Shown: positions 4,168 through 35,706 of the stretch, piece after piece | Layout of the letters: the number at the start of each line of letters is the position of its first letter | How positions within the stretch are numbered: position 1 is the first letter of the stretch | Source: Gammaproteobacteria bacterium | GTDB taxonomy: Bacteria > Pseudomonadota > Gammaproteobacteria > UBA4575 | NCBI GenBank assembly: GCA_963422595.1 | Contig: OY730298.1 | Location: 90,512-154,511 of the forward strand | Direction: 5' to 3' | Length of the DNA: 64,000 nucleotides | Notes under the pieces: model-generated | What the model saw: the letters and a program-made list of their open reading frames with translations, nothing else | The model's database searches: none | What the model was told of the DNA's origin: nothing | Made by a program: the position numbers and the translations under genes

Positions 4168-4384
4168 TGCCTTGCTGACAGCAGATATTTTGTGTTTTAC
4201 GATAGGGTTATGCACAATTGTGGTTCTGCTATCGTAAATGCTTGCCGTTATCGACTGGTTGTCGCTACAATTTCATATGCCATTATGCTTCTTAATAAAA
4301 TCAATGAGTTACTTAACTGTACGCTTTTTAGACAATTTAATAAAAATGTAAGATTGCGCAGGTGTTGATGTCAGGTATAAACGA

Positions 4385-4419
4385 ATATCCACAGATTTAT
4401 CCACAGATTTTGTGGACAA
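4385..4419. promoter_or_regulatory. Cluster of three DnaA-box 9-mers (ATATCCACA, TTATCCACA, inverted TTGTCCACA) in the hemW-rpmE intergenic region
   Basis: Direct reading 'aatATCCACAgatTTATCCACAgattTTGTGGACAAg'. Two boxes are direct and one is inverted, within 35 bp, in an AT-rich intergenic region about 150 bp upstream of rpmE. Confidence 0.5.
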
Positions 4420-4566
4420 GTCTTAAACCTCTGCAAGAATCAATACTTAAGCCTAATTACTAAAATATTTTTCAGAGATGCCAGCTAAGTTACAAGGCAT
4501 TACTTGAGTTACGGCGTGCGATTGAGTATGCTGCGCGCGTACTATTTGAAATTACGTCAATATAAA

Positions 4567-4776
4567 ATGAAACCGAATATCCACCCAAATTATCAGGCAG
4601 TGAAGGTAACTTGCAGTTGCGGAAATACGTTTACCACGCGCTCTACTTATGGTGCTGACGACTTGCACGTTGACGTGTGCTCGTTGTGCCATCCTTTTTT
4701 TACTGGTAAACAAAAAATTGTGGATTCAGCCGGACAGGTAGATAAATTCAGGAGACGTTACGGTAACAAGAGCTGA
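4567..4776 (+). CDS. rpmE: 50S ribosomal protein L31
   Basis: '[27 protein letters not shown]' with a CxC...CxxC zinc ribbon, typical of L31. The start was moved to the internal Met of the track ORF. Confidence 0.9.
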
Positions 4777-4855
4777 TCGATGCCGTGAGCAGGCCTGATA
4801 TTGCCTTCGATTTATGCGTTGGCGTACTGCACTCGCCTGTAAGCGTGTACTGATA

Positions 4856-6322
4856 ATGGATAAACAAATTCGACTGTTGGTAGCGGGCCTGGTATTGCCG
4901 GGCATATTGTTCCTCTGTGGATGTGCCACTAACCCGGTGACTGGCAAGCAGGATTTTGTGCTGATGTCGGAGGCACAGGAAATCAGTCTCGGCAAACGCG
5001 CGCATCAACAGGTCATGCAGCAGTATCGGCCTTACCATGATGCCGCACTGCAAGGCTACGTGGAAGGTCTGGTCAAAGAGCTTTCCAGAGAAAGTCATCG
5101 TAGTAATCTGATGTTCCACGTAACGGTGCTCGATAGCCCCCAGATTAATGCCTTCGCTTTGCCCGGTGGCTATATTTATATTACTCGCGGCATTATGGCG
5201 TATATGAATTCGGAAGCAGAACTGGCCGGCGTGCTTGGGCATGAGATTGGGCACGTGACGGCACGACACGGCGTGCGCCAACAGAGCATCGGCACGTTAA
5301 CCAGCCTGTTGAGTGCCAGCGTGGGCATACTCACTGGTAGCAGAGAGGCCGCGCAGATTGCGAATATAGGAACTACCGCGTTGGTACGCGGCTATGGCCG
5401 CAAACACGAGCTTGAGGCAGATCGTCTGGGGGCAGAGTATCTGGCACGCACAGGCTATGACCCGGAAGCAATGATTGATGTCGTCGGCATTCTGAAATCA
5501 CAGGAGGATTTCGACAAACAGCTGGCTAAAGAAGAAGGCCGTGAACCGCGCGCGTATCACGGCACCTTTTCCACTCATCCGGCAAACGATAAACGACTTC
5601 AGGAGGTGGTGATGGCAGCCAACAGGTTCAACACTGCCGCCACGCGCGAGGCTAATCGCGAGCTCTTCCTGGATTACATAGATGGCATGGCGCTTGGCCC
5701 ATCGGAACAGGATGGGGTGTTGCGCGGCAATAAGTTTTATCATAATGAGTTAAATCTGTTTGTGGAATTTCCGCCGGGCTGGAAGGTGGATAATCTGCCC
5801 GACCGTCTGCTGGCACAACCCAAAAGCCGGGGTACGCGGTTACAGATCATGACAGCCGAATTGCATAAACACCAGACCCCAAAGGAGTACTTGACGGGGC
5901 TTGTCAAAGGCCGGATTAGTGGCGGTCAAAACGTTAGAACGACCAGTTTTGAAGGCTATACGGGATACGTCACGTTAGATGATGCACAAATTGGTAATTT
6001 GCCTGTGCGGGTGGCCGCAGTTTTTGACAGTAAGCGCGCCTATCAAATATTCGTTACCCACAAAGATGCCGGTTCTTTTAACCGTAACGATAGCACTACC
6101 CTGACGATAATTAAAAGTCTGCGCCATTTGCAAGGTGGTGAGCGGAAGCTGGGTAAACCCAAACGTATCAAATTAATGCGTGCCAAATCGGGGGACACGT
6201 TCGCTGCATTAGCTGAACAATCCAGCCTGTCGCATCATCCTGTCACGCAGTTGCGCCTGTTAAACGGCATGTATCCGAATGGGGAACCCAACCCCGGACA
6301 GCTTATTAAAATCGTGCAGTAA
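4856..6322 (+). CDS. M48-family Zn metallopeptidase with C-terminal LysM domain (BepA/LoiP-like), signal peptide
   Basis: 'GVLGHEIGHVTARHG' is the HExxH motif in M48 context. N-terminal 'MDKQIRLLVAGLVLPGILFLCGC' looks like a signal/lipoprotein leader. The C-terminal 'KSGDTFAALAEQSSLSHHPVTQLRLLNGMYPNGEPNPGQLIKI' matches LysM. Confidence 0.8.
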   Translation: MDKQIRLLVAGLVLPGILFLCGCATNPVTGKQDFVLMSEAQEISLGKRAHQQVMQQYRPYHDAALQGYVEGLVKELSRESHRSNLMFHVTVLDSPQINAFALPGGYIYITRGIMAYMNSEAELAGVLGHEIGHVTARHGVRQQSIGTLTSLLSASVGILTGSREAAQIANIGTTALVRGYGRKHELEADRLGAEYLARTGYDPEAMIDVVGILKSQEDFDKQLAKEEGREPRAYHGTFSTHPANDKRLQEVVMAANRFNTAATREANRELFLDYIDGMALGPSEQDGVLRGNKFYHNELNLFVEFPPGWKVDNLPDRLLAQPKSRGTRLQIMTAELHKHQTPKEYLTGLVKGRISGGQNVRTTSFEGYTGYVTLDDAQIGNLPVRVAAVFDSKRAYQIFVTHKDAGSFNRNDSTTLTIIKSLRHLQGGERKLGKPKRIKLMRAKSGDTFAALAEQSSLSHHPVTQLRLLNGMYPNGEPNPGQLIKIVQ

Positions 6323-6388
6323 TTTCAGCGTTCAAAGGCCGCCTATAGATGCGATAACGGCGGCTCTGGCAGACCCGGGGGCCGGGCC

Positions 6389-7163
6389 CTACATGGTTGC
6401 TTCCGCAGAATTAAAACGGACTAGTTTGTTCCAATCAATTGTTCCGTTATCTTTACAGTATGTATTCGTAAAATCTTTGGTAAATTTGTTGAGCGTTTGT
6501 GAATATGATGCTACGAAGGCATCATTCTCTTGTTTTGCTTTATGCCCAAGCGGTTCAATGATTTTTGTGTAGAGCTGGTCATCGCCAGAGATAAATTCCC
6601 AAAAACGCTGACCACAATATTTGAAATAATCCCCCTTGTCCAGCTTGCTGTCCCTGCCGTAGCAACAACCGTTTACGGCCACTATATTCAATTTTGAATT
6701 ACTGGTTCGCAATGTTCTTTTAGCGGTTCTGAAATCTGTTGCCATTTTGGTTATTTGTGAACTGTTACCCCAGTTGGGACCCGATTTAATTGCCACGATG
6801 AATCTTTACTCCGTCACGGTTAAACTCAAGATCAATACCCGGGATGCCTGATTTATGCCCACCATAAACTTTATGGTTAACAAAAATAGCCAACCCTTCC
6901 AACCAATCACTAAAAATGGCTTCTTCACTCAATGAAACGTGCGCATCTGTCAGATTTTTTACAATCTGTGCAGCAGTCAGCACGTGTTTGGCCTTGAAAA
7001 GATATGGATTTTTGCGCCTGAGAACCTTGGATAATTTCAGTTTATCAAGGCTTTGAATACGTTTTTGGTGAAAAATCCCAATATTTCCTTCAACGTACTG
7101 AAATACGTCCATCAGGTTCAGCTTTTGCATATTCGGTCTCGGGTTCGCACAAACATAATTCAA
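6389..7163 (-). pseudogene. Putative type II restriction endonuclease, apparently split by a frameshift into two overlapping ORFs (6786..7163 and 6389..6796)
   Basis: Two same-strand ORFs (125 aa and 135 aa) overlap by 11 nt in different frames immediately downstream of, and overlapping, the methyltransferase gene. Together they are about 250 aa, a typical REase size. 'GIPGIDLEFNRDGVKIH' is a possible PD-(D/E)xK-like motif. The region is AT-rich relative to its flanks. Confidence 0.4.
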
Positions 7164-7968
7164 CCGGTTTTAACCTTTCTTCAACCATTTCGCAATACTC
7201 TGGCACCAGGTCAATACCGATTGCGTTGCGCCGCATGCGGTTAGCAACTATCAGGGTTGTGCCCGAACCCATAAAAGGATCAAGAACCACGTCACGTTGC
7301 TGTGTAAATAATCTGATAAACCATTCCGGCAACGTTTCAGGAAAAGCCGCGCTGTGGTTTTTGTTGTTGCACTCGGTAGCCAAATGTAAGACGTTGGTTG
7401 GATAAGCCTTGTCTCTGTTAAGCCAGTTTGAAACGTTCTTGCCAAACTTACTCCCCACTTTTGAGTGGTCACGAGTTTTATCGGTTGCGGAAAGATTCTT
7501 CAGTCTGGTGCCGGCCCATGCCCCGACCGGCACCATGACTGCTTCCTGATACATGTTGAATTTGCGAGTTTTATTGAATTGAAGCAGTCGTTCCCACGCA
7601 TCCCGAAAACGATTAGGCCATTTTCCCGGATAACAGTTTTTTTTATGCCAGACAAATTCTTCCGTCCATAACCAGCCCTGTTCGCGCATCTCCAGAATCA
7701 ATTTGATGACGTAGGTGCTGCGCTCTCCATTAACTGCTTTTTCCTTGATATTCAGGATGAACGTTCCCGTGGATTTAAGCACGCGCAAAAGCTGCTCTGA
7801 CCTGGGCAAAAACCATTCTATGTAGTTGTCGGGGTGAACGCCGCCATAGGTGTTGCTGCGTTGATCGGCGTATGGGGGAGAGGTAATTATCAGATCCACT
7901 GAGTTTTCCGGGAGCAGCTTTAATTGTTCTTTGCTGTCGCCACAGTATATATCGGCGGTGATTTCCAT
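7090..7968 (-). CDS. DNA methyltransferase, beta-class (N4-cytosine or N6-adenine), 'SPPY' catalytic motif
   Basis: 'LIITSPPYADQ' (motif IV) precedes 'DPFMGSGTTLIVA' (motif I, SAM binding). The IV-then-I order defines the beta class. 292 aa. Confidence 0.8.
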   Translation of the reverse strand: MEITADIYCGDSKEQLKLLPENSVDLIITSPPYADQRSNTYGGVHPDNYIEWFLPRSEQLLRVLKSTGTFILNIKEKAVNGERSTYVIKLILEMREQGWLWTEEFVWHKKNCYPGKWPNRFRDAWERLLQFNKTRKFNMYQEAVMVPVGAWAGTRLKNLSATDKTRDHSKVGSKFGKNVSNWLNRDKAYPTNVLHLATECNNKNHSAAFPETLPEWFIRLFTQQRDVVLDPFMGSGTTLIVANRMRRNAIGIDLVPEYCEMVEERLKPVELCLCEPETEYAKAEPDGRISVR

Positions 7969-10246: not shown

Positions 10247-10268
10247 CCCCCCCCCCCCCCCCCCCCCC
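10247..10268. repeat. Homopolymeric poly-C tract (about 22 nt) upstream of the first gene of the glycan island
   Basis: Read directly: 'tatactCCCCCCCCCCCCCCCCCCCCCCtcgaaaaagg'. It lies about 90-140 bp upstream of the candidate starts of the WecA-like gene. Confidence 0.9.
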
Positions 10269-23853: not shown

Positions 23854-24006
23854 ATAGTAGCCATCATGAGTATGAAGCCATTCATCAATAGCTCAACACG
23901 TTAGGCACATGCGGTGTCGCAGGGGTTTTTCAGAAAGACAGTTTCGCCTCCGACCTGCACGAGAGGTTGTGGCCCAAATGACGGACAGCATTAAGTTAAG
24001 GATGAA

Positions 24007-25155
24007 TTGCCAGGTAGATTGCCGACCATGACAATTCGAATGCTTTGCATCCTTCCAATCAGCACGGATGCCAGGATTGCCAAGCGTATTGATATGCTGC
24101 GGCGGGTGGGCTTGCAGGTTGAGGCACTAGGCTTCGAACGCAAACACTATCTGGGCAGCCGGCCAAACTGCCCATTCGCTAAACTAGGGAATATTTCGAA
24201 TGGGCGTTACGCTGCCCGAATCGGGAAATTAATGTCGGCCATACCAAAGACACGAGGTGCAATGCAACGCAATGACGTCATTTATGCGTTCAGCGCCGAT
24301 ATGGCCCTCCTGTCTCTGATCTCCGGAGCAGGATTGAGGATGCCAGTTATTGTCGAGATGGCTGACATCAGAGAGATTCAGGTCGCGGGCGGTCTGATCG
24401 GCTGCGTGGTTCGCGGCATTGATAAGCTGACGACTCGCGCCTGTCGACTGCTGGTGCTGACGACCGATAGCTACCTGAGCTACTACCGCAACTGGCTGGA
24501 GATAGAAACGCCGAGTGTGATCATCGAAAATAAGGTTGATGGATGGTTTTCGGCGGCCGTTCGCGCCAAGCGTGCGTATCCCTTGAGCGGCCGACCGCTG
24601 GTGGACCGACCACTGCGTATTGGCTGGTTCGGCTACTTGAGAGATGAATGGTCGCTGCGAGTTCTGCACTTGTTGACGCGATCAACTGACCAGTTCTCCG
24701 CAATTCTCGCCGGGTCGCAATCGGAGCCCTGCCGGAGACTCATTGACGAATTGGGGGAAATGCCCAACAGTGAGATTCTCGGACCCTACGACCATCCGGC
24801 AGATCTGTCGGCTCTCTACGGCCGCGTTGACATGGCCATGGCCTGTTATCCGCCAGAGGCACCGCACGGCTGGTCCCGGTCGAACAGGTACTACGACGCC
24901 TGCCTGTTCCAGAGGCCGATCATCGTTCGTGGCGGTTGCGGGGATGCCGATCGGGTGCGGCAGCTCGATATCGGACTAACTATCGTCTCGTCCGAAATTG
25001 AGGGAGCAGCGGCGGAGATATGCGACATCGAGGCCGCAACATGGGATCGCTGGCGTGCTAGTATGGTGGCTTTGCCACCCGAGGAATACACTATGGGGAA
25101 TGAGGATATTGTACTGCGGGATACAATCAAAGACATCGTGAGGGGATTGGCATGA
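24007..25155 (+). CDS. Hypothetical protein, possibly a GT-B-like glycosyltransferase
   Basis: 382 aa soluble protein inside the glycan island with no strong motif I could identify. Confidence 0.3.
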   Translation: MPGRLPTMTIRMLCILPISTDARIAKRIDMLRRVGLQVEALGFERKHYLGSRPNCPFAKLGNISNGRYAARIGKLMSAIPKTRGAMQRNDVIYAFSADMALLSLISGAGLRMPVIVEMADIREIQVAGGLIGCVVRGIDKLTTRACRLLVLTTDSYLSYYRNWLEIETPSVIIENKVDGWFSAAVRAKRAYPLSGRPLVDRPLRIGWFGYLRDEWSLRVLHLLTRSTDQFSAILAGSQSEPCRRLIDELGEMPNSEILGPYDHPADLSALYGRVDMAMACYPPEAPHGWSRSNRYYDACLFQRPIIVRGGCGDADRVRQLDIGLTIVSSEIEGAAAEICDIEAATWDRWRASMVALPPEEYTMGNEDIVLRDTIKDIVRGLA

Positions 25156-26498
25156 ATTGGACTGGTGTTGCGAACATCGTCCACCGGCTTGCCGGGCATG
25201 GTTACGCCAACCGGGTTCGAGATGCGCTGGTTGGCGGTACTTCCGTACTCGGCGTGATCGCCCGGCGCCTGTCGTTTCCCGGCGACAGCCTTGCTCTGCT
25301 GGCTTTGCTGCTGGCGGCGAACTTGCTGCGCATCTACCTTCCCGGCCTGGTCACCGATGGCGTCTTCGGGATGACGGTCCTACTCCTCGCGCTGTCGCTG
25401 TTCCGGGAGCCATTTCCAGCCTCCGCGCGGACGACCGCCCTCTGCTTCGCGGTGCTGCTGACGGTCTACGTGGTCGGCCTGCTGGTGGAGTTCAGCATCC
25501 AGGGCGCCAGCAATCTTGCCGGGATTCTGTTCGCCGGCGTCATCTTTCTGTTCTGCTGGCGCAATGCTCCGACATTGATTCGGGCCAAGTACGTTATCCC
25601 CCTCTTGCTGACAGCAGCCTCGGCACTATTTCCGCTGTACCTGCTGCCGGCCGGACTCAACGCAAATAGCTTTAGCAGCATCTTCGGATACTTGCTGCTG
25701 ACCGTCGGGCTTATCCTGATAGCCCGCTCTGAGTGCCGAAGAAAACGGCATTTATGGGTACACGTCTTGTTCTTGCTGGTTATGGCGATTGGCGTCATTT
25801 TCGGAACCCGGATACTTGTACTTATCGCGCTATTGGCTTACCCGCTGTACTGGAGCGGGTACTTTTTCCTGCGAAACCGATTGGGTGCCGGACTGGGGGC
25901 AGCAACCGCGGGGTTGCTGATCTGCTTTCCTATCGTGTTTTTGGGCACGCCTTACTTCAGTGAAGTCATGGCGACACTCGAGAGCTTCAGTCGAAAGTAT
26001 ACAGGGAGCGGCATACAAACTGGACGTGAGACATTTTGGCGGCACTCGCTGGCCGCTATCTCTGAGTCCCCTTGGCTTGGCAGAGGTCCCGGCGCAGGTG
26101 TTTCAGGTCTGACGAACGGTGACTCGTCCCTTTCCGAACGACAGTTGGAGCTTCCTCTTTCCTGTCTGAATGCAACAAACCCGGGCTTGAGGGCCGACTG
26201 CGAGATTCTACTGGGGGCGCGCAACAGCTTGACCACTGATCCTGAACTTCTCTGGACCTGGGTGCCATTCCGCCCTCTGGATTCCTGGCGGGGTATGAAG
26301 GTAGGCGGTGCGCCGCCGCGGGTGGTGGCAATAAACATTCATGAGCGGGGATTGCGCGGCGTTATTCCGCCGGCACTGGGGCGACTGGACAAGTTGGAGT
26401 CGCTGAGGCTAAGCAACAATGCCCTGACTGGCCCGATTCCGCCCGAGCTGGGCGGCTGCGCAACCTGCGGGTGCTGGCGCTCAACGACAATGCGTTGA
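25152..26498 (+). CDS. N-terminal part of Wzy_C (O-antigen-ligase/PglL-type) membrane protein, running into the first LRR module and truncated by a frameshift
   Basis: Nine predicted TM helices, then 'FSRKYTGSGIQTGRETFWRHSLAAISESPWLGRGPGAG', the Wzy_C periplasmic-loop motif. Next come an LRRNT-like cap ('DCEILLGARNSLTTDPELLWTWVPFRPLDSWRGMKVGG') and LRRs. The frame ends at 26498 shortly after a GGG run that is GGGG in the duplicated copy downstream. Confidence 0.7.
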   Translation: MNWTGVANIVHRLAGHGYANRVRDALVGGTSVLGVIARRLSFPGDSLALLALLLAANLLRIYLPGLVTDGVFGMTVLLLALSLFREPFPASARTTALCFAVLLTVYVVGLLVEFSIQGASNLAGILFAGVIFLFCWRNAPTLIRAKYVIPLLLTAASALFPLYLLPAGLNANSFSSIFGYLLLTVGLILIARSECRRKRHLWVHVLFLLVMAIGVIFGTRILVLIALLAYPLYWSGYFFLRNRLGAGLGAATAGLLICFPIVFLGTPYFSEVMATLESFSRKYTGSGIQTGRETFWRHSLAAISESPWLGRGPGAGVSGLTNGDSSLSERQLELPLSCLNATNPGLRADCEILLGARNSLTTDPELLWTWVPFRPLDSWRGMKVGGAPPRVVAINIHERGLRGVIPPALGRLDKLESLRLSNNALTGPIPPELGGCATCGCWRSTTMR

Positions 26499-27930
26499 GC
26501 GGCCCCGTCCCGCCGCAACTCGGAGCGCTCGAAAACCTTGAGGAGCTGCGGTTACGCGGCAACCGGCTGAGCGGCGAAGTGCCGTTAGAACTGGCGAATC
26601 TAACTAACCTGTCGCTGTTACGTCTTGCCGGCAACGATTTCACCGGCACACCGCCGCCGACGCTGCACGATACGGCGGACCATGACCTCGACCAAGACTC
26701 GCTCTGCCTACCCTTATTGCACGTCGGCGAGGGGCTGCTCAGCGACTGCGAGACTCTGCTGGCCGCGCGGGACGTTCTGGCCGGTAACGCCACGCTCGAC
26801 TGGAAACGATCCAGGCCTATCGCGGCATGGCAGGGCGTGGCAATTGGCAAGACTTCAGGGGGCATACGAGTAGTCAGGCTGGACTTGACGGATCTCGGGC
26901 TGAGCGGCTCAATTCCGCCGGAACTCGGCGGGCTGGATCAACTTATGTCGTTGCGCCTCGCCGGCAACTGGCTCACCGGTTCCATTCCGCCGGAACTGGG
27001 GGAACTCATGCGCCTGAGGGAGTTACGGCTCGCAAACAACCGGCTGAGCGGCGACATCCCGCCGGAACTCGGTTGGCCGTTCGGTCTGTCGATTCTGCGT
27101 CTTGCCGGGAATGATTTCACGAGCGACTTGCCAGCAACGCTTGACCATGTCGGCGAGCACGATTGGGGTCTTGAGCTGTTCTGCCTGCCCGCCGGCAAAG
27201 CAGGCATCCCATCGCCGGGTATCAGCACTGCCATGCTCGAAGATTGCACCGTGCTGCTGGAAGTGCAGGACGTTCTGGCCGGGGAAGCGATGCTCAACTG
27301 GAAACAGTCCCGGCCCATCGGGACGTGGCAGGGTGTGAAGGTAGGCGGCGCGCCGCCGCGGGTGGTGGCAATAAACATTCATGAGCGGGGATTGCGCGGC
27401 GTTATTCCGCCGGCACTGGGGCAACTGGACAAGTTGGAGTCGCTGAGGCTGAGCAACAATGCCCTGACTGGCCTGATTCCGCCCGAGCTGGGGCGGCTGC
27501 GCAACCTGCGGGTGCTGGCGCTCAACGACAATGCGTTGAGCGGCCCCGTCCCGCCGCAACTCGGAGCGCTCGAAAACCTTGAGGAGCTGTGGTTACGCAG
27601 CAACCGGCTGAGTGGCGAAGTGCCGTTAGAACTGGCGAATCTAACTAACCTGTCGCTGTTACGTCTTGCCGGCAACGACTTCACCGGCACACCGCCGCCG
27701 GCGCTGCACGATACGGCGGACCATGACCTCGACCAGGACTCGCTCTGCCTACCCTTATCGCACGTCGGCGAGGGGCTGCTCAGCGACTGCGAGACTCTGC
27801 TGGCCGCGCGGGACGTTCTGGCCGGTAACGCCACGCTCGACTGGAAACGATCCAGGCCTATCGCGGCATGGCAGGGCGTGGCAATTGGCAAGACTCCAGG
27901 GGGTATACGAGTAGTCGGGCTGGACTTGAC
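26281..27930 (+). repeat. Intragenic tandem duplication: about 620-bp segments at 26281-26900 and 27311-27930 are about 97-98% identical (period about 1,030 bp)
   Basis: Direct base-by-base comparison of the two stretches ('...ggtgtgaaggtaggcgg.gcgccgccgcgggtggtggcaataaacattcatgagcggggattgcgcggcg...ctgacggatctc') shows only scattered substitutions. One difference is a 1-nt indel in a G-run. Confidence 0.85.
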
Positions 27931-30900
27931 GGATCTCAGGCTGAGCGGCTCAATTCCGCCGGCACTGGGGAAGCTTGCGTATCTGAAAGAACTGTGGCTG
28001 AACGACAACGAATTGAGCGGCGATATCCCATCCGAATTGGCGATGCTGAGCAATCTGTCCTCGCTGCGACTTGCCGGCAATGAATTATCGGGCACCGCGC
28101 TACGCGATGTCGCGGCCCATGATCTCGACCGCGATCTGCGCTGCCGCCACGCGGCACCCCGGAGTAACCCCGGCCTGGTCCACGATTGCGCCGTGTTGCT
28201 GTCCGCACGGGATGTTCTGGCCGGCGCTGCCTCTTTGAATTGGGACGACTCGATGCCTCTTGAATATTGGGAAGGTGTGGTACTGGACGGTGTGCCGGCA
28301 CGGGTGACGGGGCTGATTCTGCCGGAGAAGGGACTGAGCGGCCGCATTCCCCCGACCCTCTCGGAGTTGGACCGGCTTGCAGTGCTGCGTATCCACCGCA
28401 ATCGGTTCACCGGCGCCATCCCGCCAGAGTTGGGGCGGCTGACCCACTTGCGCGAGCTTGTGCTTGCTTCCAACGTCCTGAGCGGTCCTATTCCGCCGCA
28501 GCTCGGCGATCTGGAGCGGCTCACTCTGCTGCACCTGTACGGAAACCGCCTCAGTGGTCCAATTCCGCCCGAGTTGGGGAAATTGCGCAGCCTGCGCGGC
28601 TTGAGCCTGGCTTCCAACCGTTTAACCGGTCCAATTCCGGTGGAAGTGGGGCGCCTTGCGAACCTCAAGTGGCTAAATCTCCAGTTCAATCGCCTGTCCG
28701 GTTCCATCCTGCCGACGTTGAGAAGGCTTGAGAAACTAGAGTCCATCAAACTATCGCATAACGATTTCGTCGACGCGGTGCCGGAAGACTCCAGACGTGA
28801 CAATGTCGATCCGGAGTCTGCCGCGCCTGCACTGGCAGGCAGGCATGACCCCGGCCTGTCCAGCCCGACATCCCTCCAGAACAACCCCGACCTGCTTGCC
28901 GACCGTGCGATTCTGCTGTCCGCACAGGACGTTCTGGCCGGCGCCGCCTCCTTGAATTGGGACGACTCGATACCCCTTGAATATTGGGAAGGTGTGATGC
29001 TGGACGGTGTGCCGACGCGGGTGACGGGGCTGAATCTGCCGGAGAAGGGACTGAGCGGCCGCATTCCCCCGCAACTGGGAGAATTAAATCGACTTGCATC
29101 ACTGCGCCTGCACCGCAACCAGCTGACTGGTGACATTTCACCAGAACTGGGAAAACTGGCTAATTTGCGGGAGCTGGCACTTGGATTTAACGCCCTGAGC
29201 GGCACTATTCCTCCGCAACTGGGCGACCTGGAGCAACTTACCTTGTTACACTTGCACCGCAACCGGCTGACCGGACCGATTCCGCAGGAGCTTGCAAGAC
29301 TGACGAGCTTGAGGACGTTGACGCTCGATTCCAATGCGTTGAGCGGCGAGGTGCCGCCGCAGTTGGCGAAGCTGCCGAACCTTGGGGAGCTGTGGCTTGA
29401 CGGTAGTCAATTGGACTTACCACTGGAGTTAGCGACATTCAATGAGTCGCCGACCTTGGGCCCGAATGGTAGTTCCGCTGCGATCACGACCGCACCACGT
29501 GTCGATCCCGATCTGCTCTGCCCGAGCGCCGATGGTGACGGACTGGGTGACGATTGCGCCGCCTTGCTGACCGCAAGGGATGCTTTGGACGGTGATAGCA
29601 CGTTGAACTGGAATCGTGTTACGCCCGTCGGCGCATGGCAAGGCGTCAGACTGGGTGGCCAGCCGCCGCGTGTGTTCGCAGTGGACCTGTCACAGGCGGG
29701 GTTGAGTGGCCATGTCCCAGCGGAACTGGGAAGGCTGGAGATGCTCGTTTGGCTGGATCTCGACGGCAACGCCCTGACCGGTTCGATTCCGTCCGAACTG
29801 AGAAAGCTTGCCAACCTGCGAAGACTGGATCTCGACGGCAACGCCCTGACAGGCCCCATCCCGCCGGAATTGGGAGGTATGTTGAACCTGGAGGAGTTGT
29901 CGTTACGAGGTAATCGGCTGACCGGCCATGTTCCACCGGAACTGGGGGCACTGCCCAAGCTCTTGACCCTGCGACTCGGCGGCAATGAATTCAGCGGCTG
30001 CCTCCCGTGGGAACTGCAAGATATGGCGGACCGTGAGCTGGAGCTCGACCTGCTATGCAGCCCGTCAATGGTGAGCGGCCGCGGCCTGTACGAAGACGTT
30101 ATCGCCTTGATGGAGATGCGCGACATCCTGGCCGGCAGCATCCGCCTGAATTGGAGCTACGCATCGCCCATCTCTGCCTGGGAGGGCGTCACCGTGAGTC
30201 CGGTGCGGCCCGCTGGTCGGGGAGCGCGAGCGGGGGCCGCTGCACAGGAAACGAAGCGTGTGGTCGGGCTGGATTTGTCGGGGATGGGTCTCGATGGGCG
30301 TCTGCCGGCGGAGTTGGCGGAGTTGGACCAACTCATCTGGCTGCGCCTTAACGACAACCGGCTCACCGGCGCCATCCCGCCGGAGCTGGGCAGGCTCGTT
30401 GAGCTACGGGAACTGGCACTGGATTCCAACGTCCTGACCGGCACTATCCCTCCGCAACTCGGCCGACTTGCGAACCTTTCGGAGTTGTGGCTTGGACACA
30501 ACCGTCTGACTGGCGCTATCCCGCCGGAATTGGCGGCACTTGACACGCTATGGATTCTGCGGCTCGGCGGCAACGAATTGCAGGATAATTCACCGGACAA
30601 AGAATTCCCCACCTGGAACAAGGCCGTTAAGATCGTGAATAAGGCCATAGACCCATCGGCTCCCGGCGGCATCCCGCGATCCACCCATAATCTGTTCTTG
30701 CAGGTGGGGGTACAGACGGGGATTTTTGGCCTTGGCGCTCTGGCACTGCTGTGCGTCTCTCTGATTTTCAACCTGCGAACGCGGAGGGGAAAGAAGGTCA
30801 CGCCGGTGCAGTGTTTTGCTGCCGCCTGTACCACTATTATCCTTGTTCATAACACGTTCGAGGTCTTCCTGCTGCAAAACCTGTTCACGATAGGATGTGT

Positions 30901-30976
30901 CACTTGGATTTTGATCGGGCTCGGCGCCGGAGCGGTCAATCTGCAGGTGGTGAACAGCCGCCAGCAGGCGCCTTGA
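26471..30976 (+). CDS. Giant plant-type leucine-rich-repeat protein with C-terminal Wzy_C TM helices (continuation of the 25152 gene in another frame)
   Basis: 1,501 aa. Repeated modules consist of a Cys-containing cap ('LCLPL.HVGEGLLSDCETLLAARDVLAGNATLDWKRSRPIAAWQGVAIG') followed by 24-residue LRRs ('LxxLxxLxLxxNxLSGxIPPELGxL'). The C-terminus 'PRSTHNLFLQVGVQTGIFGLGALALLCVSLIF...' carries the HNxxL...G..G motif and final TM helices of the O-antigen ligase/Wzy_C family. The reading frame is open upstream of 26471 back to the frameshift site. Confidence 0.75.
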   Translation: MLALNDNALSGPVPPQLGALENLEELRLRGNRLSGEVPLELANLTNLSLLRLAGNDFTGTPPPTLHDTADHDLDQDSLCLPLLHVGEGLLSDCETLLAARDVLAGNATLDWKRSRPIAAWQGVAIGKTSGGIRVVRLDLTDLGLSGSIPPELGGLDQLMSLRLAGNWLTGSIPPELGELMRLRELRLANNRLSGDIPPELGWPFGLSILRLAGNDFTSDLPATLDHVGEHDWGLELFCLPAGKAGIPSPGISTAMLEDCTVLLEVQDVLAGEAMLNWKQSRPIGTWQGVKVGGAPPRVVAINIHERGLRGVIPPALGQLDKLESLRLSNNALTGLIPPELGRLRNLRVLALNDNALSGPVPPQLGALENLEELWLRSNRLSGEVPLELANLTNLSLLRLAGNDFTGTPPPALHDTADHDLDQDSLCLPLSHVGEGLLSDCETLLAARDVLAGNATLDWKRSRPIAAWQGVAIGKTPGGIRVVGLDLTDLRLSGSIPPALGKLAYLKELWLNDNELSGDIPSELAMLSNLSSLRLAGNELSGTALRDVAAHDLDRDLRCRHAAPRSNPGLVHDCAVLLSARDVLAGAASLNWDDSMPLEYWEGVVLDGVPARVTGLILPEKGLSGRIPPTLSELDRLAVLRIHRNRFTGAIPPELGRLTHLRELVLASNVLSGPIPPQLGDLERLTLLHLYGNRLSGPIPPELGKLRSLRGLSLASNRLTGPIPVEVGRLANLKWLNLQFNRLSGSILPTLRRLEKLESIKLSHNDFVDAVPEDSRRDNVDPESAAPALAGRHDPGLSSPTSLQNNPDLLADRAILLSAQDVLAGAASLNWDDSIPLEYWEGVMLDGVPTRVTGLNLPEKGLSGRIPPQLGELNRLASLRLHRNQLTGDISPELGKLANLRELALGFNALSGTIPPQLGDLEQLTLLHLHRNRLTGPIPQELARLTSLRTLTLDSNALSGEVPPQLAKLPNLGELWLDGSQLDLPLELATFNESPTLGPNGSSAAITTAPRVDPDLLCPSADGDGLGDDCAALLTARDALDGDSTLNWNRVTPVGAWQGVRLGGQPPRVFAVDLSQAGLSGHVPAELGRLEMLVWLDLDGNALTGSIPSELRKLANLRRLDLDGNALTGPIPPELGGMLNLEELSLRGNRLTGHVPPELGALPKLLTLRLGGNEFSGCLPWELQDMADRELELDLLCSPSMVSGRGLYEDVIALMEMRDILAGSIRLNWSYASPISAWEGVTVSPVRPAGRGARAGAAAQETKRVVGLDLSGMGLDGRLPAELAELDQLIWLRLNDNRLTGAIPPELGRLVELRELALDSNVLTGTIPPQLGRLANLSELWLGHNRLTGAIPPELAALDTLWILRLGGNELQDNSPDKEFPTWNKAVKIVNKAIDPSAPGGIPRSTHNLFLQVGVQTGIFGLGALALLCVSLIFNLRTRRGKKVTPVQCFAAACTTIILVHNTFEVFLLQNLFTIGCVTWILIGLGAGAVNLQVVNSRQQAP

Positions 30977-31222
30977 TGCCTGACTGCGGGGCTGCAAATT
31001 GATAAGGATGAGATGTTTTCGTTCTTCAGCCGGGTTCTGTTCCCCATGTCCGTCCTTAATAATAGGACTGAAGATGATAGCAGGGGAAAGCAGACGCGAG
31101 GCACTACCTGATACCCGGCAGATCAGTTGGTCGTATGAAAACATTGTAACGGGTCGGCCCGCAGATTCATTTTGCATGTGGATATTGGAGAGTGTCAAAC
31201 CGCCGCAGATTTTTCCGGCACT

Positions 31223-32644
31223 ATGAACGCGAAAACTGACCCGGCCGGTGTTGAGGCCACGTCATCGAATGAGCACGGCTGCGCGGCTGTGCCTGACGTG
31301 CCATTGCCCGGTAGTGGCAGCGGGCGCGCGGCGCATGAGGTTGCCCAAGTGTTTGGTACCCGGATTGGGGTGTACGGCATCGGTATTCTCGGCCAGAGCT
31401 TGCTGGCATACCTGCTGTTGCCTGCCGGTCGCGGTGAATATGCGGTGTGCGTGGCATTCGGTAGCCTGCTCGGTGTGCTGTTCCCGATCAGTGCCGCCTA
31501 CGGCGCTCAGTATTACACGGTGTCGGGGCGGATTAGCCTGTCGAAGTGTCTGTGCGGGGCAGTCGGCGTGTGCCTGGCCGGTAGTGTAGTGGCTGCGGTG
31601 GTGGCACTGCCGCTTATTTATAGCGGTACGACTTTTTTCCGCAAGGCGGACCCGGCTGCGTTCCAACTGGCCTTGTGGCTGGTGCCACTCATTTCGGTCT
31701 CCAGCGTGGCGGAGCTGCAGCTCGCTGGGCTCAGACGCTTCATGCCGTTGGCAGGGTTTTTACTGCTTCAGTCCGTTACTATGGTGTTGGGGATATTGGT
31801 GCTGGCGTGGAAGCTGGATGCGGGGGTGAATGGCGCACTGCTGGCACTGATTGCGGGCTATGTGGTGAAATTGGCGTGCTGCATTGGGTATCTGCACAAA
31901 GCATGTGGTCTGCGGTTCGAGTTGCCGTCTGCCGCGGAGCTTCGCCGTATCGTCGGGTACGGCCTGCGCTATCACGTCGCACAAGTGGGAAACGACGTGG
32001 AACCGCGCATCGGTGTATTCGTGCTGGGGACGTTGGCCGGACGCGCCGATATCGGACTGTTCGCGGCCGCCAGTACAATCATGCTGCGCCTCGGCTATTT
32101 GCTGAGCGCGGTGGCACCGGTGCTGTATCCGCGCGTGGCCAGGAACCCGGCGAGGTCAATGGAGGCAATCGGGTGTTCCTTGCGCCTGATTTGCCTGACC
32201 ACCGCCGGCGCGGTCGCAGCATTTCTCGCTATCTGCGAGCCTGTCGTCCGCATCCTGCTGTCCGAGGCATTTATGCCTACGGTGCCGCTGCTGTGGATTA
32301 TGGCACCGGGCGTTGTCGCCTATGCCGGGGCGAACGTGTTCATCGCTTATTTCACGGGCAGTGACCGTCCCGGGATCTGTTCCTCGGCTTTGTGGCTGAG
32401 TCTGACCGTTAACATCGCTGCTTCCCTGGTGTTGTATCCGATGCTCGGCATCCGCAGCGTCGCCTGGGCGATGACCGCAGGGCTGTTTGCCCGAGGCGTG
32501 TTTCTCGCCGTTACGTTTCACCGCACCACCGGCTTGTCCTGGCGGTCTCTGTGGCTGCCGCGACGCGGCGACGCGAGCTTTTTGTGGGGGCTGGTGCGCT
32601 CTATGCTGGCACGTGGGGGCAGAAAATTTCCAATCAGGAGATAG
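31223..32644 (+). CDS. wzx: Wzx-like polysaccharide flippase (MOP/PST family)
   Basis: About 470 aa with roughly 12-14 predicted TM helices and a polysaccharide-biosynthesis-protein-like profile, adjacent to Wzy and Wzz. The start was moved to the ATG at 'MNAKTD'. Confidence 0.65.
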   Translation: MNAKTDPAGVEATSSNEHGCAAVPDVPLPGSGSGRAAHEVAQVFGTRIGVYGIGILGQSLLAYLLLPAGRGEYAVCVAFGSLLGVLFPISAAYGAQYYTVSGRISLSKCLCGAVGVCLAGSVVAAVVALPLIYSGTTFFRKADPAAFQLALWLVPLISVSSVAELQLAGLRRFMPLAGFLLLQSVTMVLGILVLAWKLDAGVNGALLALIAGYVVKLACCIGYLHKACGLRFELPSAAELRRIVGYGLRYHVAQVGNDVEPRIGVFVLGTLAGRADIGLFAAASTIMLRLGYLLSAVAPVLYPRVARNPARSMEAIGCSLRLICLTTAGAVAAFLAICEPVVRILLSEAFMPTVPLLWIMAPGVVAYAGANVFIAYFTGSDRPGICSSALWLSLTVNIAASLVLYPMLGIRSVAWAMTAGLFARGVFLAVTFHRTTGLSWRSLWLPRRGDASFLWGLVRSMLARGGRKFPIRR

Positions 32645-32793
32645 AAAATCAGCTTGAAATTGCACAGTTTTGTAGCGTATCTGAAGGTGGTTGTTGCGTG
32701 GGGCGGTGTACTCGAACTCGTCGGGCACAAAAAGGCGGTTGCTGGAAGGACAACTCTGTATTGACGGTTCTGCGCGAGTGCCAAACACCAGGG

Positions 32794-32823
32794 GATTGCC
32801 TGCACAATGCAAAATGGCATAAT
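32794..32823 (+). promoter_or_regulatory. Candidate sigma70-like promoter (TTGCCT-16nt-CATAAT) upstream of the canonical wzy-like gene
   Basis: 'TTGCCTgcacaatgcaaaatggCATAATcacg' sits in the AT-richer 240-bp gap between wzx and wzy. Pattern match only. Confidence 0.25.
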
Positions 32824-32886
32824 CACGTGGCTGCGAACTTGAGGATATGCGCTTGAATCTGTGCTGGAAACGGATTCTGCGTCCAA

Positions 32887-34296
32887 TTGAACAACTGCTC
32901 ACGCAGAGGCAACCGATGGGAAATGAACAAGTTGTTGTGCGAACATACCAGAGAGCGAATGAGTATGACGCCTGGTAACCGGCGGCCGGTAAATCTGTCA
33001 ATACATGTGGCATTCTGGCTGATGGCGGCTATGCTGTTGCTTAACGTGGTCTGGATTCCGACGCTGATTGGACTCGGTAGAGCGGTGAGCTGGCTTGTTG
33101 CGCTGCCGCTGCTGCTCAGCCAGATGTTCCTGGTCAGTCTTGCCTTTCGCCTTCCGCTACGGCGGGCGATGGGTAGCGCCGGCTTCCTTATCGTGGCCGC
33201 GCTGGCATACTACTTTTTCATCGGCTCGTCTATGGCCATCGGCACGGTACCGTACCCGTTTGAGAGTATGCTGAAAATTATTTACTCTGCCATGGCCGTG
33301 GTGGCAGCGGCGGTGGGCAGTTCGCTGGTGCTGAGACAAACCGGAATTGACGGGCTGGTTACCGGAATGCTGGCACTGCTTGGCGTGACGTGCACACTCA
33401 TTATCGCGTCGCCGCTGCTCAGGAACGTGTTCTCATTTCAGCATCAGGATTTCTTTGATCAGTTCTTCGGGGTTTTCATGGACCCGAATGACGCGGGCTA
33501 CATGGGTTGTCTGGCGGCGGTGCTGGCCCTGGCGTCGCTCACTCCGCATAGCCGATGCCGAAAGCTGGCAGCCGCGGTGCTGATGCTAAGTGTGGTGGCC
33601 ACGATTTTGACCAATTCGAGGAGCGCGATCGTTACGCTTGGGCTGACACTGTTCTTTTTTCTGCCGTCTCTATACCGTGCCTTGAGGGCATTTTGGCCAG
33701 CTATCGTGGGTGTAGTGATCGGTATGACCCTGCTGGTGGCCAACGTTCTCGACTTTGCGTCATTGTTCTCGGAAAAGAATATCCGCAGGTTTACGCAGAT
33801 GACGCAGCCTTTTGAAGCAAATGTCCTCGAAGATAGCCGCTTGTTCCTGTGGCGAATCGCGCTGCCACAAATTGCGGAGGCGCCTGTTCTTGGCGGCGGT
33901 TTGGGAAAGATGCAGTACCTCGACGGCACCATTTGCGGCGGTTCGATCTACGCCGTTTGCGGAGTGCATAATACGTACCTATTGCTGTTGGGAGAGGCGG
34001 GCATGGTTGCGCTGACGCTGTTTCTGCTATTTCTCGCTACCTTGTTGTGGCAACGCTGGCGGTGGGGAGCTTCCATCGCCACTAACGTGGCCGCTGGTTG
34101 GACGCTGGTGCTCGCCGTTAATGCCATGATGTTTCACCATTTGCTGAGTACGCTATGGTGTGGCTTCGTTATCGGCGTGAGTTGCGCAATGGCAGCATAC
34201 GCCGCTGAGACTGTGTCCGCTCCGACTAAAGTTGACCTGATGCAGCCGAGTCCCCGTGGCGGGACAGGCTTGTCAACCCCGGGAGGCCACACGTAG
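32887..34296 (+). CDS. wzy: Canonical O-antigen polymerase/ligase family protein (Wzy_C)
   Basis: 'LTNSRSAIVTLGLTLFFF' and 'RLFLWRIALPQIAEAPVLGGGLGKMQ...VHNTYLLLLGEAGMVAL' are Wzy_C hallmark motifs. Polytopic. Confidence 0.7.
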   Translation: MNNCSRRGNRWEMNKLLCEHTRERMSMTPGNRRPVNLSIHVAFWLMAAMLLLNVVWIPTLIGLGRAVSWLVALPLLLSQMFLVSLAFRLPLRRAMGSAGFLIVAALAYYFFIGSSMAIGTVPYPFESMLKIIYSAMAVVAAAVGSSLVLRQTGIDGLVTGMLALLGVTCTLIIASPLLRNVFSFQHQDFFDQFFGVFMDPNDAGYMGCLAAVLALASLTPHSRCRKLAAAVLMLSVVATILTNSRSAIVTLGLTLFFFLPSLYRALRAFWPAIVGVVIGMTLLVANVLDFASLFSEKNIRRFTQMTQPFEANVLEDSRLFLWRIALPQIAEAPVLGGGLGKMQYLDGTICGGSIYAVCGVHNTYLLLLGEAGMVALTLFLLFLATLLWQRWRWGASIATNVAAGWTLVLAVNAMMFHHLLSTLWCGFVIGVSCAMAAYAAETVSAPTKVDLMQPSPRGGTGLSTPGGHT

Positions 34297-35706
34297 CGTG
34301 AGAAACGGCCTCACCCCCAGGGAATCGAGGAATAACGCGCCGCCCATCGCCACAATTAACCCAAAGACGCCGGCAAGGATTGCATAGATGAGAAGTGCAA
34401 TGGCCTTCATGTCAGGAGTGAGTACCGCGTTGGATGCCATACGAAGCGTCAGGTTAGCGGCGGCATCTTCAACGACCATCTCTACGGATTCATTTTCCAG
34501 GTTAACCAACGCTTCCTCCAAACGGTCTCGATTCCCGGCCAGTCGTCTGCGTTCGGTACTCACCTCTTCCTTTCTACGTTGCATCTCCTGAAGGTCATTC
34601 TCCAACTTTGAAATACGTTGTGAGAACAGCCCTTCGGCCAAGGCTAAACCTGATAATTCGGAGTTCCCGTTACCGGACAGGCCGTCGGAGAAATTGGCGA
34701 TTTCTGCTTCGATTTGCTGGATTTGGCTTTGCAACATTTGAATGAAGGCATCAACATCGGCCCGCTGGTCGGCCACGTTGTCGTGCATCGCGTCCAGGTC
34801 GTCGAACGCAAACTCCCAGTTATCGTAACCAGAGGCAGAATAAGTGAACGCCCGGGTCTTGAGCAGCAGGATTGCCAACCCGTTCGACCTGACACCTGTT
34901 TCGTCTGCACTCCTGATTTGCTTGCGAAGTCCACGCGCGTCGTTGAGAAGCCCATGGAGTAGCCGCCAGCGATTAAAGATGTCAGTGCGACTTAAGCGTT
35001 GCGTTTCCGCGACCTCTTCAATCTCTTGTGTCTTTTCCTCTATCTGCCGATCAATCCTGTTGATTTCATTGCGGGTGATATGCTCTTTCAGTTTCGACTG
35101 GGCAAGCGTGTATTCGTCCAGTATACGGGTTATCCCCTGCATGACCGCACTGTGCCTTTCCCGCGACGAAATCCACACGAGATTCACCTCGCGAACATAT
35201 TCCTCACCCCAGGTATCGGCAATGCTCAGTGCCTTCTCTGGTGAGTCGGCGGTCACCTTAATACTGATCAAGTCACTAAGATTTTGTCTGCTTTGGGCGC
35301 CGGACAGATAGGCAGAAACAGAGCTCATCAGCCAAGTCATATTACGTTCTTCTGCATCCAACTGTCCGCCAATGCGTTTAAGCACGGCCGTGGCTACCTT
35401 GCCGTTGTAGACGAGACCAAGCATAGCAGCCTGCCTGGAAGTAATGGCGGGAAGCCCTTCCAGTTCCGAGGTTTTTGAAACAATCAGTACCGTAGCTATA
35501 GCCGTATAGCTGGGACTTAATAAGTGCTGGTAGCTCCAGGATATGGCAAAGGTGAGTGCCGTAACCAGAACAAAAACCAAGCTAAACTCCCGCCACCAGG
35601 AGAATAACCTGATCAGGTGTCGACGAAGGTCGATTTTATCGGGCCAGGCAGATTCGCGCGGGCGCAACGGTCGTTGCGGGGAAGTAGTCTCTGTTGTTTC
35701 AGCCAT
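34273..35706 (-). CDS. wzz: Polysaccharide co-polymerase / chain-length determinant (Wzz/PCP family)
   Basis: An N-terminal TM helix ('LVFVLVTALTFAISW'), a long coiled-coil periplasmic region and a C-terminal TM helix ('IALLIYAILAGVFGLIVAMGGALFL') give the PCP topology. Confidence 0.7.
   Translation of the reverse strand: MAETTETTSPQRPLRPRESAWPDKIDLRRHLIRLFSWWREFSLVFVLVTALTFAISWSYQHLLSPSYTAIATVLIVSKTSELEGLPAITSRQAAMLGLVYNGKVATAVLKRIGGQLDAEERNMTWLMSSVSAYLSGAQSRQNLSDLISIKVTADSPEKALSIADTWGEEYVREVNLVWISSRERHSAVMQGITRILDEYTLAQSKLKEHITRNEINRIDRQIEEKTQEIEEVAETQRLSRTDIFNRWRLLHGLLNDARGLRKQIRSADETGVRSNGLAILLLKTRAFTYSASGYDNWEFAFDDLDAMHDNVADQRADVDAFIQMLQSQIQQIEAEIANFSDGLSGNGNSELSGLALAEGLFSQRISKLENDLQEMQRRKEEVSTERRRLAGNRDRLEEALVNLENESVEMVVEDAAANLTLRMASNAVLTPDMKAIALLIYAILAGVFGLIVAMGGALFLDSLGVRPFLTLRVASRG

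Follow-up and report, generated by a model that had tools for sequence, protein, structure and literature searches.

Two non-adjacent blocks of 644 bp within a Wzy_C-LRR gene are probably kept alike by intragenic gene conversion, and the frameshift in the first of them, a run of three G where comparable blocks have four, is best read as an error in the consensus sequence of a metagenome assembled from long reads, a reading to which we give a probability of about one half. The two blocks are predicted to be old paralogous modules that predate the split from the closest relative's gene. The gene lies in a 64,000-nt window (the whole stretch of DNA analysed) and appears there as two ORFs, which are to be annotated as one gene with a putative single-base lesion and not as two genes, while the repeat is not to be called a fresh duplication.

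Gene architecture and Wzy_C likeness

ORF1 (25152-26498, forward strand, as are all features below) encodes 448 residues, of which residues 1-434 are native; the last 14, before the stop, are out of frame. Besides its hydrophobic segments and the N-terminal Wzy_C part, the native part contains the module-1 cap and ~1.5 LRRs. ORF2 (26471-30976) encodes 1501 residues from a GTG codon; its frame is open from 26399, and the two frames overlap at 26399-26498. It carries what is left of module 1, then modules 2-8 and, at its C-terminus, two hydrophobic helices (30719-30919; residues 1417-1435 and 1465-1483), and hydropathy analysis finds no N-terminal hydrophobic segment in it. Judging from the intact homologs, the undivided gene would count ~1,941 codons and encode a single polytopic Wzy_C-like membrane protein, with eight cap-plus-LRR modules predicted to be inserted in a large loop. 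The eight to nine hydrophobic segments of ORF1 and the two at the end of ORF2 agree with a polytopic protein having a large loop between late helices. Within the array, a 28166-28568 stretch of module 5 is 77% identical to 28883-29285 in module 6, an older internal repeat with an offset of 717 nt.

The polytopic N-terminal domain is common to this protein and to the Wzy_C/O-antigen ligase family (PF04932; WaaL, Wzy-type), and the family profile is matched on either side of the large loop. In ORF1, profile positions 3-105 score 27.8 bits, while positions 122-147 match residues 1422-1447 of the 26399-30976 translation, near its C-terminus and just before the first C-terminal helix (16.7 bits). 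The gene also resides in a glycan island, where its neighbours are a Wzx/MurJ-like flippase and, at 32887-34296, a canonical Wzy_C gene (58.7 bits). However, it departs from the family in that its scores are slightly below the curated cut-off of 31.7 bits, as is that of the intact protein of its closest intact homolog, L021 (30.7 bits in two stretches), in that the loop carries ~1,450 residues of LRR modules, and in that the domain is additionally split by the frameshift in the present assembly.

Origin of the near-identical blocks

Copy 1 (26286-26928) runs from the WxGV end of the module-1 cap through five LRRs and a linker to the module-2 cap and its first LRR. Copy 2 (27326-27969), which is in frame and carries GGGG, likewise comprises the end of the module-3 cap, five LRRs, a linker, and the module-4 cap with its first LRR, and each copy thus differs from the two cap-plus-LRR modules that the sequence-only reading had ascribed to it. 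The near-identity noticed in that reading is real. The copies agree at 624 of 644 columns (96.9%), with 19 substitutions and one indel, as compared with 60-78% for the other module pairs of the same array, a similarity far beyond chance. The location of the repeat was also right, except that copy 2, placed at 27311-27930, was ~10 nt off register, and the separation of about 1,030 bp becomes an offset of 1040 nt before the G-run and 1041 nt after it. The copies are in frame, 347 codons apart, in a two-module register.

A recent tandem duplication had been proposed for this pair, and the extent of the likeness argues against it. Identity is restricted to 644 nt of the 1041-nt period and falls to background at both edges, the flanks of the two copies being 35-47% identical. 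The 397 nt between the copies (26929-27325), which hold LRRs 2-4 of module 2 and most of the module-3 cap, are unlike the blocks, and the arrangement is therefore not head-to-tail; this spacer is no closer to 27970-28366 than to the remainder of the array. TRF reports no tandem repeat, a silence that is uninformative for a 1041-nt period given its period limit of 500. Moreover, L021, an independent assembly, contains both blocks at the same places and with the same 1041-nt offset.

The site patterns point in the same direction. Inside the block, 13 sites are concerted (both copies here alike and differing from both L021 copies) and three are positional, whereas the two flanks, with 17 and 16 positional sites, lack concerted ones altogether. 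Outgroup polarisation of the 13 concerted sites assigns seven as derived in both copies here and five as derived in both L021 copies. Over 26476-26928, the right-hand part of the block, the segment at position 2 reaches only 66-75% identity in more distant homologs, so that diverged paralogs probably represent the older state. The derived bases shared within each genome, together with sharp tract edges and flanks that follow positional orthology, indicate gene conversion, the direction and timing of which we infer. The ends of the tract fall in the most conserved motifs, namely WxGV of the cap and IPPxLG of the LRR. A further tract specific to the present genome had been considered on the basis of 40 L021-copy-1 singletons at 26291-26471, and was withdrawn as unproven because that part of L021 lies in a long L019-like tract.

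Repeat modules of bacterial surface proteins can undergo concerted evolution through intragenic recombination or gene conversion. As in the streptococcal alpha C/Rib-type proteins and the staphylococcal wall proteins, the paralogous in-frame modules described here are more similar within than between genomes, their number differs among relatives, and the tract ends lie in conserved motifs. Unlike in those proteins, the units are cap-plus-LRR modules in a Wzy_C-like loop and not a wall-anchored fibril, and the homogenised blocks are non-adjacent, with the unlike spacer between them. The block pair indicates that gene conversion and unequal exchange drive the evolution of the LRR modules in this family, which would explain why array length and internal identity are so different among relatives.

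The missing G

The frameshift site is a GGG at 26450-26452 in copy 1, inside the overlap of the two frames, one G short of the GGGG found in all three comparable blocks (copy 2, at 27490-27493, and both L021 blocks). The codons read CTG GGC GGC here and CTG GGG CGG elsewhere. Within the conserved part of the gene, this G is the only gap relative to L021 that is not a multiple of three, which bears out the earlier proposal that one base splits the gene. The 1,507 codons downstream of the lesion are intact, no second lesion is found in these 4.5 kb, and all homologs examined are single uninterrupted ORFs. A programmed -1 ribosomal frameshift was considered and rejected, since the zero-frame CTG GGC GGC contains no slippery heptamer and all homologs are unshifted.

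According to the proposed scheme, copy 1 would have lost one G of a G4 run, and the single, isolated lesion would cut the Wzy_C domain in two. As assembled, the gene would be a null allele: ORF1 ends 14 codons past the shift, and the ORF2 product would consist of the array and the last two helices, with neither an export signal nor a membrane-entry segment. Loss of function through the frameshift is thus what the predicted products suggest.

The sequence-only reading had set a pseudogenising event against a sequencing error, and this was the right pair of alternatives. We lean towards the error on the strength of a genome-wide frameshift census over 1170 ORFs shared with a comparator MAG, G009. 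In the present genome, the single-copy prs gene has a one-base frameshift at genome position ~896,976, although identity persists at 86% over its C-terminal 56 residues; also frameshifted are a DegT aminotransferase, HsdR, a GT3/TrpD-like gene, a patatin gene (twice), a 1037-aa protein, and others. The comparator MAG has its own frameshifted genes, which we take, from their sequences by eye, to be purD, a class I aldolase, and cas9. Together, the frameshifts of the two genomes make assembly errors plausible. Five further census hits in the present genome (G000 positions 1022780, 244375, 275357, 293737, and 340803) were discarded as false positives due to spurious N-terminal extensions by the ORF caller. 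The lesion thus resembles the residual one-base indel errors of long-read MAGs: it is isolated, it shortens a short homopolymer by one base, and the frame around it is otherwise perfectly conserved. Other single-base frameshifts accompany it, both in the same assembly, where one of them hits an essential single-copy gene, and in the comparator MAG. The lesion departs from plain errors of this kind in that the frameshifted genes here lean to accessory functions.

This last point belongs to a competing explanation that we hold to be nearly as likely as an artefact. The repeat would be the same conversion-homogenised one, and the missing G would be a real and very recent loss-of-function mutation, by which a recently imported Wzy_C-LRR gene begins to decay in a small genome that sheds accessory genes. 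Most of the other frameshifts lie in accessory-type genes, namely HsdR, the patatin gene with its two lesions, the DegT aminotransferase, and the 1037-aa protein. Six of the eight frameshifted genes, accessory ones by type (restriction, patatin, sugar aminotransferase), were not found in a more distant genome; this fits real decay in a 1.78-Mb genome, but the skew is not significant, two of the eight belonging to the 47% core fraction (one-sided binomial ~0.19, in a comparison that covered the first two thirds of G028). The gene is foreign by its GC content (58-63% versus 48.2% genome-wide), and a recently imported and GC-discordant gene belongs to a class that often decays, which counts against an artefact. 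So do the private substitutions, nine in copy 1, of which seven are nonsynonymous, versus five in copy 2, and so does the fact that G4-to-G3 errors are uncommon in high-accuracy long reads. The loss may also be tolerated, as the canonical Wzy_C gene is still in the island. On the other hand, a real mutation would have to be very young, given the clean downstream frame and the counts of derived changes: with 39 nonsynonymous to 24 synonymous on the present branch and 24 to 17 on the L021 branch, these counts give no sign of excess decay or extra relaxation on the present branch. It would also leave the prs frameshift of the same assembly, the reality of which is difficult to credit.

Taken by itself, the frameshift matters only locally, and its consequences depend on which of the two explanations applies. 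If it is real, a large membrane protein bearing LRRs, presumably exposed at the surface, has only just been lost from this organism; if the missing G is an artefact, coding sequence in this assembly contains about one indel every 100-200 kb, and every "pseudogene" call made on it is affected. A search for an independent assembly of the same organism found none, the nearest non-self protein being 89% identical, and two pattern scans of metagenome contigs for either tract length at copy 1 returned no match.

Switching hypotheses and the mobile context of the gene

The missing G had also been proposed to be a slipped-strand, phase-variable event, which is very unlikely. The run is of 3-4 nt, the three comparable blocks all have G4, and the homologs examined are each a single open frame. 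Contingency tracts in Neisseria, Haemophilus, and Campylobacter loci are typically of at least 7 nt. The window contains 371 occurrences of GGGG, fewer than the shuffle mean of 499, and runs of G3 or G4 are both too common and too short for a contingency tract. As in the homopolymer loci of those genera, a one-base change in a G-run shifts the frame of a surface-glycan-type gene; however, the run described here, well short of their tract length, is part of an ordinary Leu-Gly codon pair of the LRR consensus and exhibits no length variation among comparable blocks or homologs. Long G/C tracts are present elsewhere in the genome, such as a 22-nt C run at 10247-10268.

A fresh ~1 kb tandem duplication enclosing a phase-variable G-tract would account for the 97% identity of the repeat and its in-frame spacing of 347 codons, and for a difference that is a homopolymer length change, in a genome where long G/C tracts exist. 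We nevertheless regard it as highly improbable: the likeness extends over only 644 of 1041 nt, L021 has the pair as well, derived sites are common to both copies in each genome, the tract is of 3-4 nt and GGGG, albeit common in the window, is under-represented relative to shuffles, and all homologs are in frame.

Just as improbable is a recombination-reversible OFF state, in which a real frameshift in copy 1 would be periodically repaired, or created anew, by conversion from copy 2, as a slow cassette-like switch within one gene. In a variant of this scheme, a crossover 5' of the G-run would delete 347 codons and yield an in-frame six-module protein. Conversion between the blocks has probably occurred since the split from L021, near-identical sequence surrounds the site (164 nt on the 5' side and 476 nt on the 3' side), and module number varies widely among relatives; yet none of the relatives examined is in an OFF state, and one lesion in one assembly does not make a system. 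A broader version, to which we attach only slightly more weight and still consider very unlikely, would place the gene in a recombining cross-lineage pool where module conversion acts as a slow, reversible on/off and length switch, the frameshifted copy 1 being an OFF state that copy 2 can repair.

The proposal that the repeat is a substrate for recombinational gain or loss of modules is plausible. Relatives carry their own internal repeats, 92-100% identical, and their lengths range from 643 to 2443 codons (1366-2443 in L017-L020, 1990 in L021, and 643-2089 in G009 and G016). L021 was considered as a sister strain and rejected, its flanks having ~64% GC and its PFK and H+-PPase genes being 66-71% identical to those of the present genome; "lineage" therefore refers here to the gene lineage.

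By its composition and distribution, the gene is foreign and would lie on a horizontally acquired island. It forms a mosaic common to genomes labelled as four different lineages. Patches of it reach 91-99% identity between genomes in which housekeeping genes agree at only 66-71%, and two MAG labels as far apart as Nitrospirales and Arenicellales go with islands that are 89-94% identical. This mobile mosaic context is of more interest than the repeat and the frameshift, which are ordinary findings. Upstream, the gene at 24007-25155, which encodes a 382-residue protein with no Pfam match, also accompanies the LRR gene at its loci in the other genomes.

Architecture of the split LRR gene

The Wzy_C-like LRR gene is assembled as two overlapping ORFs on the forward strand, ORF1 (25152-26498, 448 residues) and ORF2 (26471-30976, 1501 residues from a GTG, the frame being open from 26399). 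ORF1 displays 8-9 hydrophobic segments and matches positions 3-105 of the Wzy_C profile (27.8 bits, for a cut-off of 31.7), and a match to profile positions 122-147 falls close to the C-terminal end of the ORF2 reading frame, at residues 1422-1447 when 26399-30976 is translated. Therefore, the LRR array is located inside the Wzy_C domain. In each of its eight modules, a Cys-containing cap (LLxxRDxLxGxxxLxW...WxGV) precedes 3-6 LRRs, each 24 residues long. ORF2 is devoid of an N-terminal hydrophobic segment and ends with two helices; as assembled, the array is presumably cut off from the membrane domain expected to put it outside the cytoplasm. Just 3' of the LRR gene, a Polysacc_synt/MurJ-like flippase is encoded at 31172-32644, and a canonical Wzy_C protein lies further downstream at 32887-34296 (469 residues, 58.7 bits, above the cut-off). 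An ordinary ligase/polymerase-type gene therefore stays in the island, irrespective of whether the LRR gene is intact.

Every homolog examined is a single open frame. This holds for those from metagenome-assembled genomes (MAGs) titled Thermodesulfobacteriota (2035 codons), Nitrospirales (2067), Arenicellales (2443) and Pseudomonadales (1366), for that of the comparator G016 (2089 codons), for the closest relative of the gene, P0005 of locus L021 (1990 residues), and for three tandem paralogs of the same-family comparator G009 (L023, G009:C1:1483000-1496500; 2053, 643 and 841 codons). Of note, these paralogs share many cross-matches at 86-98% identity, including an N-terminal domain of 1258 nt at 98%.

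Exchange between the two repeat blocks

Within the array, copy 1 (26286-26928) and copy 2 (27326-27969), both on the forward strand, align at 96.9% identity; their 644 aligned columns contain a single gap and 19 substitutions, of which 12 are nonsynonymous and 7 synonymous. The offset is 1040 nt 5' of this gap and 1041 nt (347 codons) 3' of it. The sequence-only reading, which had reported two such blocks and a GGG/GGGG difference between them, was essentially correct; the repeat is real, although its copy 2 was misplaced by ~10 nt and its separation of ~1,030 nt is wrong by as much. Each copy contains the WxGV end of a cap, five LRRs, a linker, and the next cap with its first LRR. The intervening 397 nt (26929-27325) are no closer to the 397 nt following copy 2 than to the rest of the array, and identity between the copies falls to 35-47% in their 60-nt flanks. 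The two copies thus form an interspersed, sharp-edged pair of blocks rather than a head-to-tail duplication. Besides, L021 possesses both blocks at matching places, 1041 nt apart.

Comparison of the two window blocks with their two L021 counterparts reports 13 concerted sites, at which both window copies agree and differ from both L021 copies, and only 3 positional sites, at which each copy matches its counterpart. In contrast, the flanks of the blocks yield 17 and 16 positional sites and no concerted one. With the position-1 segments of L018 and L019 (the Nitrospirales- and Arenicellales-titled loci) as outgroups, 7 out of the 13 concerted sites are derived in both window copies and 5 in both L021 copies; therefore, since the two gene lineages split, sequence has been exchanged between the blocks in each. 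To judge from these site patterns, the exchange is gene conversion, which, together with the sharp edges and the presence of both blocks in L021, contradicts the recent tandem duplication proposed earlier. Measured against the right-hand part of the block (26476-26928), more distant homologs reach 73-91% identity in their position-1 segments and only 66-75% in their position-2 segments; diverged paralogs therefore represent the older state. Since the divergence between copies (3.1%) is close to that between the window and L021 arrays (1-4%), the last homogenisation was not especially recent.

Internal repeats of high identity are a general feature of the family. Those of G016 (locus L022, G016:C1:240000-249500) are fresher module exchanges than the window pair, with 997 nt at 100% (3411-4407 and 4449-5445, offset 1038) and 1036 nt at 99.7% (5351-6385 and 6230-7265, offset 879). 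Others are found in L019 (1786 nt, 91.7%, offset 717) and L018 (325 nt, 98%, offset 144). A second, older repeat of the window gene involves modules 5 and 6 (28166-28568 and 28883-29285, 77%, offset 717 nt), and its 717-nt unit is triplicated in L019 (86-92%).

Nature of the missing G

Copy 1 reads CTG GGC GGC, with GGG at 26450-26452, and copy 2 reads CTG GGG CGG, with GGGG at 27490-27493. As a result, ORF1 contains 434 native residues, then 14 wrong residues and a stop. Both L021 blocks possess GGGG, and 26449/26450 is the sole gap that is not a multiple of three in the conserved part of the gene when aligned with L021. The suggestion that the run is phase-variable is not supported: known contingency tracts are far longer than 3-4 nt, the window contains 371 occurrences of GGGG, a count below that of its shuffles, the motif here encodes plain Leu-Gly of the LRR consensus, and no out-of-frame member was found among the homologs examined. 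In contrast to this run, long tracts do exist elsewhere in the genome, such as a run of 22 C where the glycan island begins (10247-10268), long enough to slip. Programmed frameshifting was also rejected, as CTG GGC GGC does not fit the X XXY YYZ pattern of a slippery site. Near-identical sequence extends 164 nt 5' and 476 nt 3' of the lesion, in common with an intact donor at a distance of 1,041 nt. Conversion from copy 2 could hence erase the lesion, and a crossover 5' of the G run would yield an in-frame protein two modules shorter, but we found no evidence of regulated switching at the lesion by either route.

A second assembly of the source organism was not found among the proteins and metagenome contigs searched. 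We therefore turn to a census by tblastn of all ORFs of at least 120 residues in the complete G009 genome against the source genome (G000), in which 1170 had good matches. It recovers the LRR-gene lesion and reports one-base frameshifts in six to seven further genes. Single-copy prs (PRPP synthetase; G000:C1:896176-897146, outside the window) has a one-base deletion at ~896,976, beyond which the 56 C-terminal residues are encoded in a different frame, still 86% identical to those of G009; an assembly error is the probable cause. The others on G000:C1 are a DegT/DnrJ aminotransferase (~998050), HsdR (~1718750), a GT3/TrpD-like gene (~727850), a patatin gene with two insertions (~261890/262055), a 1037-residue protein (~1104800) and, possibly, an outer-membrane-type protein. 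The reverse search returns about four frameshifted genes in G009, among them what we take, by eye, to be class I fructose-bisphosphate aldolase (~835070), purD (~1195454) and cas9 (~1356800). The prs, purD and aldolase frameshifts can hardly be taken as real; assemblies of this kind therefore do carry indel errors.

Alternatively, the G may be truly missing, a reading only slightly less probable. In its favour, six of the eight frameshifted source-genome genes look accessory and have no counterpart in the more distant comparator G028 (75% of which was compared), although this skew is not significant (2/8 core, with 47% of shared residues 'core'; one-sided binomial about 0.19). However, no second defect was found downstream of the lesion, and nonsynonymous/synonymous branch changes number 39/24 for the window gene and 24/17 for L021; if real, the lesion must therefore be very young. 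This required youth tips the tie slightly towards an artefact, to which we assign a probability of about 0.5. Between the pseudogene and the sequencing error first envisaged, the balance leans slightly to the latter.

A mosaic gene in a shared island

The LRR gene is foreign: its GC content (58-63%) and that of its locus (24500-34500, 55-63%) depart from the genome (48.2%). The segment 23998-32644, comprising the LRR gene, a 382-residue upstream gene, a GT2 and the Wzx/MurJ-like flippase, shares 72-99% nucleotide identity with loci L017-L021, found notably in single-contig MAGs titled Thermodesulfobacteriota, Nitrospirales, Arenicellales and Pseudomonadales. The L021 organism was ruled out as a close relative: its flanks have ~64% GC, and identity to the source genome is 66-71% in the PFK and H+-PPase genes. 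The array (26,650-30,100) is nonetheless 92-99% identical to L021, whereas the 5' part of the gene is a patchwork. Over 25602-26651, L021 and L019 share 91-96% identity, and the window gene is 93-94% identical to L017 (the Thermodesulfobacteriota-titled locus) over 25602-26051 and 95% to L018 and L019 over 25452-25601. Because of this mosaicism, we make no claim of source-genome-specific conversion in the left 190 nt of copy 1. L018 and L019, though titled different phyla, have ~9 kb in common at 89-94%, with unrelated flanks of lower GC. On these comparisons, 23998-32644 has the appearance of a horizontally mobile island whose LRR gene has undergone mosaic recombination, and this sharing and mosaicism are of more interest than the repeat and its frameshift, themselves ordinary.
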